A stretch of 5,545 nucleotides of DNA from Escherichia coli (lineage in GTDB: Bacteria > Pseudomonadota > Gammaproteobacteria > Enterobacterales > Enterobacteriaceae), in assembly GCF_003334385.1 (NCBI RefSeq), contig NZ_QOWN01000081.1; one strand, given 5' to 3'. Every line of letters starts with the position of its first letter. Within the stretch, counting starts at the first letter, position 1. A program made the position numbers and the translations under genes. The notes below the pieces were generated by a model, which was not told the DNA's origin, searched no databases, and was given only the letters and a program-made list of their open reading frames with translations. Shown piece after piece: positions 2,795 to 3,081 of this stretch.

Positions 2795-2823
2795 TTGACA
2801 CATTCGGGCGGAATTCATATGAT
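2795..2823 (+). promoter_or_regulatory. sigma70 promoter of the tRNA-Ala (alaW-alaX) operon, stringent-type
   Basis: Consensus -35 TTGACA (2795..2800), a 17-nt spacer, then -10 TATGAT (2818..2823), followed by the GC-rich discriminator GCCGCCC. The first tRNA-Ala starts about 33 nt after the -10. Confidence 0.72.
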
Positions 2824-2855
2824 GCCGCCCGTCAACTCGACAAGCTTTACGTGAC

Positions 2856-2931
2856 GGGGCTATAGCTCAGCTGGGAGAGCGCTTGCATGGCATGCAAGAG
2901 GTCAGCGGTTCGATCCCGCTTAGCTCCACCA
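2856..2931 (+). tRNA. alaW: tRNA-Ala (anticodon GGC), 76 nt with encoded CCA
   Basis: GGGGCTATAGCTCAGCTGGGAGAGCGCTTGCATGGCATGCAAGAGGTCAGCGGTTCGATCCCGCTTAGCTCCACCA. The anticodon loop is AUGGCAU (anticodon GGC). The G3:U70 wobble pair, which is the alanine identity element, is present (acceptor stem GGGGCUA / UAGCUCC). This is the promoter-proximal copy. Confidence 0.95.
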
Positions 2932-2970
2932 AATTTTGCACCCAGCAAACTTGGTACGTAAACGCATCGT

Positions 2971-3046
2971 GGGGCTATAGCTCAGCTGGGAGAGCGCTTG
3001 CATGGCATGCAAGAGGTCAGCGGTTCGATCCCGCTTAGCTCCACCA
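2971..3046 (+). tRNA. alaX: tRNA-Ala (anticodon GGC), 76 nt with encoded CCA; identical to the upstream copy
   Basis: A 76/76 identical repeat of the 2856..2931 tRNA, separated from it by a 39-bp spacer (2932..2970). Confidence 0.95.
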
Positions 3047-3055
3047 AATTTCCAA

Positions 3056-3081
3056 CCCTCGCTGCAAAGCGGGGGTTTTTT
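3056..3081 (+). terminator. intrinsic terminator of the alaW-alaX operon
   Basis: Stem CCCTCGC (3056..3062) pairs with GCGGGGG (3069..3075) over 7 bp, including one G-U pair, around a 6-nt loop TGCAAA. It is followed by TTTTTT (3076..3081) and sits 10 nt after the alaX CCA. Confidence 0.8.

Follow-up and report, generated by a model that had tools for sequence, protein, structure and literature searches.

Genetic organization of the alaWX locus

The window, that is, the whole stretch of 5,545 bp of Escherichia coli DNA that was analyzed, contains the tandem tRNA-Ala genes alaW and alaX and corresponds to the reverse complement of the E. coli K-12 chromosome at approximately 2.515-2.521 Mb. 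The tRNA gene pair is accompanied by the following genes:

2-156, minus strand: lysV and one tRNA-Val gene
415-1830, plus strand: gltX
1882-2274, minus strand: yfeD
2276-2635, minus strand: yfeC, divergent from and upstream of alaWX
3255-5444, plus strand: pdeA (yfeA), downstream of alaWX, encoding a 729-aa MASE1-GGDEF-EAL protein

A sequence comparison revealed that positions 2601-3400 match the genome of E. coli K-12 MG1655 exactly, in whose annotation the gene order is yfeC, alaW (b2397), alaX (b2396) and pdeA. The locus does not merely resemble the E. coli transcription unit alaW-alaX but is this unit itself, a long-annotated textbook stable-RNA operon that is already known and ordinary. 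The region was matched by all of the 5,426 complete E. coli genomes, and at least 80% of an 801-bp alaWX query was present in 5,374 of them. Every element described in an earlier note on this DNA was found at the position given there, and the designation of alaX as the distal gene next to pdeA agrees with the MG1655 annotation. The identity and the anatomy of the operon are thus established, and the reading of the locus as a whole that explains it best, and in which we are highly confident, is that of the alaWX stable-RNA operon together with the proposed processing, copy-number changes and relation to pdeA described below.

Additional observations were made in the surroundings of the operon. 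The ATG at position 3255 yields the annotated 729-aa product of pdeA, and an ORF of 768 aa beginning with a GTG at position 3138 was rejected as being just open frame upstream of this annotated start codon. Between the convergent genes gltX and yfeD, positions 1848-1876 form a symmetric hairpin with an 11-bp stem and T-runs on both strands that looks like a putative bidirectional terminator. Only one mismatch to MG1655 occurs in 5.4 kb of the window. At its end (5474-5545) the sequence runs on from pdeA in the direction of nupC, which is also the arrangement in strain AS19, and lacks the IS186C element that follows pdeA in MG1655; the host strain is therefore not MG1655, despite the single mismatch over 5.4 kb.

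Structure of the alaWX operon

The operon itself and its conserved upstream region consist of the following elements:

2753-2773, plus strand: conserved block CTGATTTTTCAGCGATTGAAA, located between about -78 and -58 relative to the predicted alaW start
2795-2823, plus strand: alaW promoter with the -35 hexamer TTGACA (2795-2800), a 17-bp spacer and the -10 hexamer TATGAT (2818-2823)
2824-2855, plus strand: leader region with the discriminator GCCGCCC (2824-2830), a transcription start predicted at about 2830-2831 and some 25 nt of 5' leader
2856-2931, plus strand: alaW, promoter-proximal tRNA-Ala(GGC) gene with encoded CCA (ARAGORN, Rfam RF00005)
2932-2970, plus strand: spacer of 39 nt, beginning with AAUUUU
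2971-3046, plus strand: alaX, distal tRNA-Ala(GGC) gene, identical to alaW (ARAGORN, Rfam RF00005)
3054-3081, plus strand: intrinsic terminator, consisting of a 10-bp stem and a GCAA loop (3054-3077) followed by T6

Both tRNA genes scored 63 bits each with the Rfam model RF00005, compared with a gathering score of 29, and in both of them ARAGORN recognized a cloverleaf with the anticodon GGC at positions 34-36. The two copies carry the pair G3:U70, the nucleotide A73 and the CCA at the 3' end. The G3:U70 wobble pair and A73 are identity elements for AlaRS. The earlier description of two completely identical 76-nt genes with a 39-bp spacer and CCA in both copies was reproduced by ARAGORN and by sequence comparison. 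The exact repeat comprises 81 nt, since the sequence AATTT after the CCA is shared by both copies in addition to the 76-nt gene, and on its 5' side it ends at the first base of the gene. The period of the tandem array is 115 bp.

The near-consensus promoter that had been noticed in front of the tRNA gene pair matches the sigma-70 consensus at 11 of 12 hexamer positions and is located 32 nt before alaW. Two matches of at least 11/12 were observed in the 5,545-bp window, against an expectation of 0.086 in a shuffled window. The second match, TTGACT-16-TATAAT, extends from position 201 to position 174 on the minus strand, directly upstream of the tRNA-Val/Lys operon, and is presumably the promoter of the valU operon. 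As both 11/12 matches directly precede tRNA operons, both are located where stable-RNA promoters should be. In an alignment covering 19 genera of Enterobacteriaceae, the -35 hexamer of the alaW promoter was invariant and the -10 hexamer was either TATGAT or TATTAT in all of them, with variation in the middle of the spacer, as would be expected if the promoter is functional. The GCCGCCC discriminator and GCCGCCCGTCA were likewise invariant in 19 of 19 genera. The predicted start of alaW and the removal of the leader by RNase P follow from what is generally known of sigma-70 promoters and tRNA maturation. Transcription by sigma-70 RNA polymerase would accordingly start near positions 2830-2831, and the invariant GC-rich discriminator is a feature that would be expected of growth-rate and stringent (ppGpp/DksA) control.

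Further upstream, the block CTGATTTTTCAGCGATTGAAA is nearly invariant in the 19 genera of Enterobacteriaceae, with variable flanks, and may represent an UP element or a binding site for FIS. The alaWX genes have been grouped with fis and other stable-RNA and tRNA operons in a module derived from RegulonDB (PMC544888). A 17-nt inverted repeat with 82% complementarity (2756-2772 and 3147-3163) brackets alaWX. Its upstream arm coincides with the conserved block near -60 and its downstream arm is kept only within Escherichia; a role of this repeat as a bracket of a mobile element or of a regulatory unit was set aside, because the downstream arm is restricted to Escherichia and a repeat this short and imperfect has probably arisen by chance.

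The strong terminator that had been claimed after alaX was recovered as a hairpin of -17.2 kcal/mol (z = -3.7; none of 200 shuffled sequences folded as well) with the adjacent T-run. The hairpin is homologous throughout the Enterobacteriaceae and contains compensatory changes in the upper stem, where both bases of the pairs are altered in Enterobacter, Leclercia, Lelliottia and Kluyvera; moreover, a T·G pair is replaced by T-A in two genera. A hairpin and T-run were also detected 5-20 nt (usually 6-9 nt) past the last CCA in 82 of 104 GGC arrays among the matches listed. The entry for this operon in a Term-seq table comprises the mature 3' end of alaW only.

The proposed primary transcript would have a length of about 250 nt and would consist of the leader of about 25 nt, alaW, the 39-nt spacer and alaX, up to the terminator. 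The AAUUUU at the beginning of the spacer looks like a putative RNase E site. Processing may then proceed by RNase E cleavage in the A/U-rich sequences that follow the two CCA ends, with the 5' ends being generated by RNase P and the 3' ends by exonucleases. The expected product would be two identical molecules of tRNA-Ala(GGC) that require no addition of CCA.

Conservation of the tandem array in other species

A scan of 100,044 species genomes for two tandem tRNA-Ala genes yielded at least 120 loci, in which ARAGORN identified 116 tandem Ala arrays, including 107 that consist purely of GGC genes. Among the matches listed, a tandem array of two to five tRNA-Ala(GGC) genes on the same strand as gltX was found from Enterobacterales to Aeromonadales, the divergent genes yfeC and yfeD lie between gltX and the array in Enterobacteriaceae only, and the spacer ranges from 19 to 115 nt in other taxa with the tRNAs staying identical.

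Two exceptional arrays were observed. In the Enterobacter cloacae complex, two non-identical copies are present that are one compensatory pair (28:42) apart. In Escherichia sp. E1V33 (L103:1300-1490), the slot of alaW is occupied by a tRNA-Ala(UGC) gene identical to alaV of K-12, with alaWX-like leader and spacer sequences, an alaWX-like second copy (GGC) and all seven differences being located between tRNA positions 28 and 65. This hybrid looks like the result of an ectopic gene conversion from an rrn-borne alaT/U/V gene; alternatively, it could represent an artefact of consensus assembly.

Copy number and probable homogenization of the tRNA genes

The copy number of alaWX in E. coli was assessed with two synthetic junction queries, of which a two-copy genome cannot cover 80% of either. 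The exact one-copy junction was found in 133 of the 5,426 complete E. coli genomes (about 2.5%), and the spacer-tRNA-spacer junction, which needs at least three copies, in 51 of them (about 1%). These one- and three-or-more-copy alleles differ by exact units of 115 bp. Annotated examples are strain EDL933 with one copy and strain M8 with three copies at the 115-bp period. Laboratory lineages vary as well, as derivatives of BL21 contain one or three copies and XL10-Gold contains three. The earlier suggestion that the direct repeats are a substrate for recombination that changes the copy number is borne out by these 133 one-copy and 51 three-or-more-copy genomes. The identity over 81 nt would allow unequal recombination or slippage to add or remove 115-bp units, giving rise to alleles with one, two or three copies.

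Some of the one- and three-copy alleles could be assembly errors. Assembly collapse is nevertheless less worrying than the earlier note had implied, because the exact repeat of only 81 nt is shorter than current reads. Such variation among assemblies, even of closely related laboratory strains like the BL21 derivatives and XL10-Gold, is what would be cited for regarding the perfect duplicate as an assembly or sequencing artefact or as a very recent, strain-specific duplication. About 5,240 of the 5,426 complete E. coli genomes, however, presumably contain two copies, and the tandem GGC array occurs downstream of gltX from Enterobacterales to Aeromonadales. On this population and cross-species evidence an assembly artefact was dismissed, and this explanation of the duplicate is given practically no weight.

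The copies within an array were internally identical in 98 of the 107 pure GGC arrays from other Gammaproteobacteria among the matches listed. Twenty of these 98 identical arrays (among the matches listed) differ from E. coli by the compensatory stem pairs 28:42, 49:65 and 51:63, and these pairs are present in every one of the two to four copies per array. Since these substitutions arose long after the tandem arrangement, the pattern points to a homogenization of the tandem copies by gene conversion or unequal exchange, beyond selection on the tRNA. The copies would thus be kept identical by selection on the tRNA along with recombination or gene conversion between the repeats.

A second tandem tRNA array of the window was also found to be altered. 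In positions 2-156 (and 157-260), lysV is accompanied by just one tRNA-Val(UAC) gene; three are present in the valU-valX-valY-lysV operon of MG1655 and two in the record of BW25113. The arrangement with one tRNA-Val gene was matched in a single piece by two of the 5,426 complete genomes, those of AS19-RrmA- and STK78-E. Copy-number changes affect two tandem tRNA arrays of the window, the one in the val array being the rarer.

A candidate promoter upstream of pdeA

The region between the alaX terminator and the coding sequence of pdeA, as well as the beginning of pdeA itself, contains two further elements:

3185-3213, plus strand: candidate pdeA core promoter TTGCTT-N17-TATTAT (3/6 and 5/6 matches), with a predicted start near 3220
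3524, plus strand (position 2,517,563 on the minus strand of K-12): published region of Rho-dependent termination within pdeA (supplementary file 2 of Adams et al. 2021; the coordinate was mapped in this study)

A consensus scan of positions 3082-3254 detected no promoter with a match of at least 9/12. When 17 sequences from about 10 genera were aligned, one conserved block, TTGCTTCGCGATGCGAATAAACTTATTAT (3185-3213), emerged upstream of pdeA. Among 50 Enterobacteriaceae loci, 24 contain a motif of the type TTG[AC]TT-N17-TA[TC]NAT at a distance of 36-41 nt upstream of the start inferred for pdeA. These features make it likely that positions 3185-3213 represent a weak pdeA promoter. The earlier expectation that the pdeA promoter lies within 3082-3254 is supported by this candidate element, which is conserved both in sequence and in position. 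Mapped transcription starts of alaW or pdeA or read-through transcripts were sought in the supplements of SMRT-Cappable-seq, which contain no mention of yfeA, pdeA, alaW or alaX, and mapped starts of alaW or pdeA were likewise absent from the Cappable-seq supplements when these were searched by coordinate prefixes of both genome versions. A literature search returned no paper that mentions yfeA together with alaX and nothing relevant on the yfeA promoter in combination with tRNA.

On the minus strand, a hairpin resembling a terminator (AACAGGGGGCCAGCCTGTT, positions 3185-3167) with a T-rich tail (GCCGATTTTT) abuts the candidate -35 hexamer of pdeA. Its conservation is limited to Escherichia, where E. 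albertii shows one compensatory pair, and there is nothing obvious for it to terminate.

The pdeA gene is located on the same strand 171-427 bp (mostly 200-300 bp) past the last tRNA gene in the 50 Enterobacteriaceae loci that were examined for this motif. This arrangement would be accounted for if pdeA had no promoter of its own and depended entirely on an alaW-alaX-pdeA transcript, of which it would form the 3' portion, like tufB after thrU-tyrU-glyT-thrT, and both the outcome of the 9/12 scan and the decrease of the pdeA transcript in an alaWX deletion strain (see below) are consistent with such a transcript. On the other hand, a strong and conserved terminator separates alaX from pdeA, the element TTGCTT-N17-TATTAT has been maintained with constant spacing to the start codon, and a substantial pdeA signal is left when the whole upstream unit has been removed and the resistance gene presumably points away from pdeA. 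A complete dependence of pdeA on the tRNA transcript is therefore considered very improbable. The candidate promoter at 3185-3213 would instead most likely drive pdeA, although weakly.

Possible transcriptional read-through from alaWX into pdeA

That leakage of the alaX terminator could couple the expression of pdeA to tRNA transcription had been proposed in the earlier note, and the word 'could' proves to be of the right strength, as this leakage is something that we infer. Indirect evidence comes from a published alaWX deletion. The ΔalaWX::kan deletion covers window positions 2732-3085 according to its primers; it removes the promoter, both tRNA genes and the terminator but retains the last 169 bp (3086-3254) before the ATG of pdeA. 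The cassette was amplified from pKD4, and its P1 end faces pdeA (PMC11480407). The mutant is viable and growth-impaired in minimal medium, with tRNA-Ala(UGC) covering the GCC and GCU codons (PMC11480407). In the RNA-seq data of this strain, the pdeA transcript was decreased 5.2-fold (log2FC -2.39, padj 2.7e-22), confounded by a total of 530 changed genes, the growth defect and the kan cassette, whereas yfeC and yfeD were increased with log2FC values of +3.71 (13-fold) and +2.68 (6-fold), respectively (PMC11480407). The changes of yfeC, yfeD and pdeA are not discussed by the authors of that study (PMC11480407). In published RNA-seq data the signals of alaW and alaX were lost in the deletion strain (log2FC about -9.5).

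The changes of the genes neighbouring the deletion look like cis effects on both sides. The rise of yfeC and yfeD is most simply explained by polar read-through from the kan cassette. The kan gene presumably reads toward yfeC, an orientation that is expected from the pKD4 map and is backed by the increase of yfeC and yfeD.

Transcription within pdeA is affected by Rho. The Rho termination region is located about 270 nt into the coding sequence of pdeA and has a Rho score of 7.7 (Adams et al. 2021). Upstream and downstream of this site, 498 and 38 reads were counted without bicyclomycin, compared with 508 and 298 reads in its presence, and inhibition of Rho raised the coverage of the pdeA body 7.7-fold (Adams et al. 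2021). These read counts indicate that Rho terminates much of the transcription entering pdeA after about 270 nt of the gene, which suggests that pdeA is subject to premature termination. A Rho-dependent stop early in pdeA is expected for untranslated read-through RNA. The 800-nt interval evaluated upstream of the Rho site extends over the tRNA genes, and the Rho score is therefore silent on where the transcripts begin.

The same data have to be weighed against a complete insulation of pdeA, in which the terminator stops essentially all transcription from alaWX and only the promoter at 3185-3213 drives pdeA. The decrease of pdeA in ΔalaWX::kan would then be caused either by an effect in trans, owing to the loss of tRNA-Ala(GGC) and the slower growth, or by a local effect of the cassette, and the 530 changed genes together with the growth defect do mean that the decrease could be indirect. 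The strength and conservation of the terminator, the conserved promoter-like element upstream of pdeA and the approximately 19% of the pdeA signal left in the deletion strain all fit insulation. Conversely, both neighbours of the deletion shift as predicted by cis effects, with yfeC and yfeD going up and pdeA going down, only about 6% of the genes are down in the ΔalaWX strain, and the 100 bp upstream of the candidate -35 hexamer were left intact by the deletion. In addition, pdeA is absent from the gene lists of the ΔvalVW strain, and three other c-di-GMP genes that were looked for, pdeH, pdeL and dgcZ, are in the lists of neither strain (PMC11480407). Complete insulation is regarded as a serious possibility that is nonetheless somewhat less likely than not.

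The existence of some read-through from alaWX into pdeA is judged to be somewhat more probable than not, even though the terminator, with its 10-bp GC-rich stem and six U's, looks strong and speaks against it. In the proposed mechanism, the tRNA genes are transcribed very heavily, a minor share of this transcription probably escapes termination and continues into pdeA, and Rho would halt much of it some 270 nt from the start of the gene. It is doubtful that such read-through materially sets the expression of full-length pdeA. Equally tentative is the more far-reaching idea that leakage past the alaX terminator supplies most of the RNA entering pdeA during fast growth, with Rho deciding on the full-length share. 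If this were true, the level of pdeA, a c-di-GMP phosphodiesterase-type protein, would follow the growth-rate and ppGpp control of the tRNA promoter, and the conserved adjacency of alaWX and pdeA in Enterobacteriaceae would reflect that regulatory wiring.

Implications and comparison with known tRNA operons

The identification of the operon in itself adds nothing new, since it is part of the known tRNA gene set of E. coli, and only the possible Rho-gated leakage from alaWX to pdeA goes beyond the annotation. If the pdeA effect is due to real read-through, a c-di-GMP enzyme would be tied to the control of a stable-RNA promoter, which is a modest regulatory idea. The copy-number polymorphism of alaWX, which includes laboratory strains, is of relevance for models of tRNA pools, for codon-usage engineering and for the checking of assemblies. 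Since alaWX comprises every genomic gene for its isoacceptor, the deletion removes tRNA-Ala(GGC) entirely; the published phenotypes and transcriptomes of ΔalaWX::kan may include cis effects on neighbouring genes and not the loss of the tRNA alone.

In comparison with alaWX of K-12, the operon has the same sequence over 2601-3400, the same neighbours, order and anticodon, and nothing differs within it; outside the operon, the host differs from MG1655 by one tRNA-Val gene instead of three beside lysV and by the absence of IS186C beyond pdeA. The operons valU-valX-valY-lysV, valVW, glyVXY and leuQPV share with alaWX a strong sigma-70 promoter, identical tRNA genes in head-to-tail orientation, short spacers, an encoded CCA and an intrinsic terminator, but differ from it in tRNA species and copy numbers. 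The val array of this window resembles alaWX in its 11/12 promoter and its variable copy number.

Unequal recombination between tandem tRNA genes has its classical example in the duplicate tRNA-Tyr genes tyrT-tyrV (su3 locus), reportedly described by Russell and co-workers in 1970. As in alaWX, identical tandem tRNA genes gain or lose a copy by recombination between the repeats; the change in tyrT-tyrV was reportedly demonstrated genetically in the laboratory, whereas that in alaWX is deduced from allele counts among sequenced strains. Operons of the thrU-tyrU-glyT-thrT-tufB type, which are not known to have a strong terminator between the tRNA genes and the mRNA, resemble alaWX-pdeA in that a protein-coding gene follows closely on the same strand and can receive the transcription of the tRNA genes. 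Unlike in the tufB operon, a conserved terminator and a Rho-dependent region intervene at alaWX-pdeA, and any coupling of pdeA to alaWX would therefore be leakage and not operon design.
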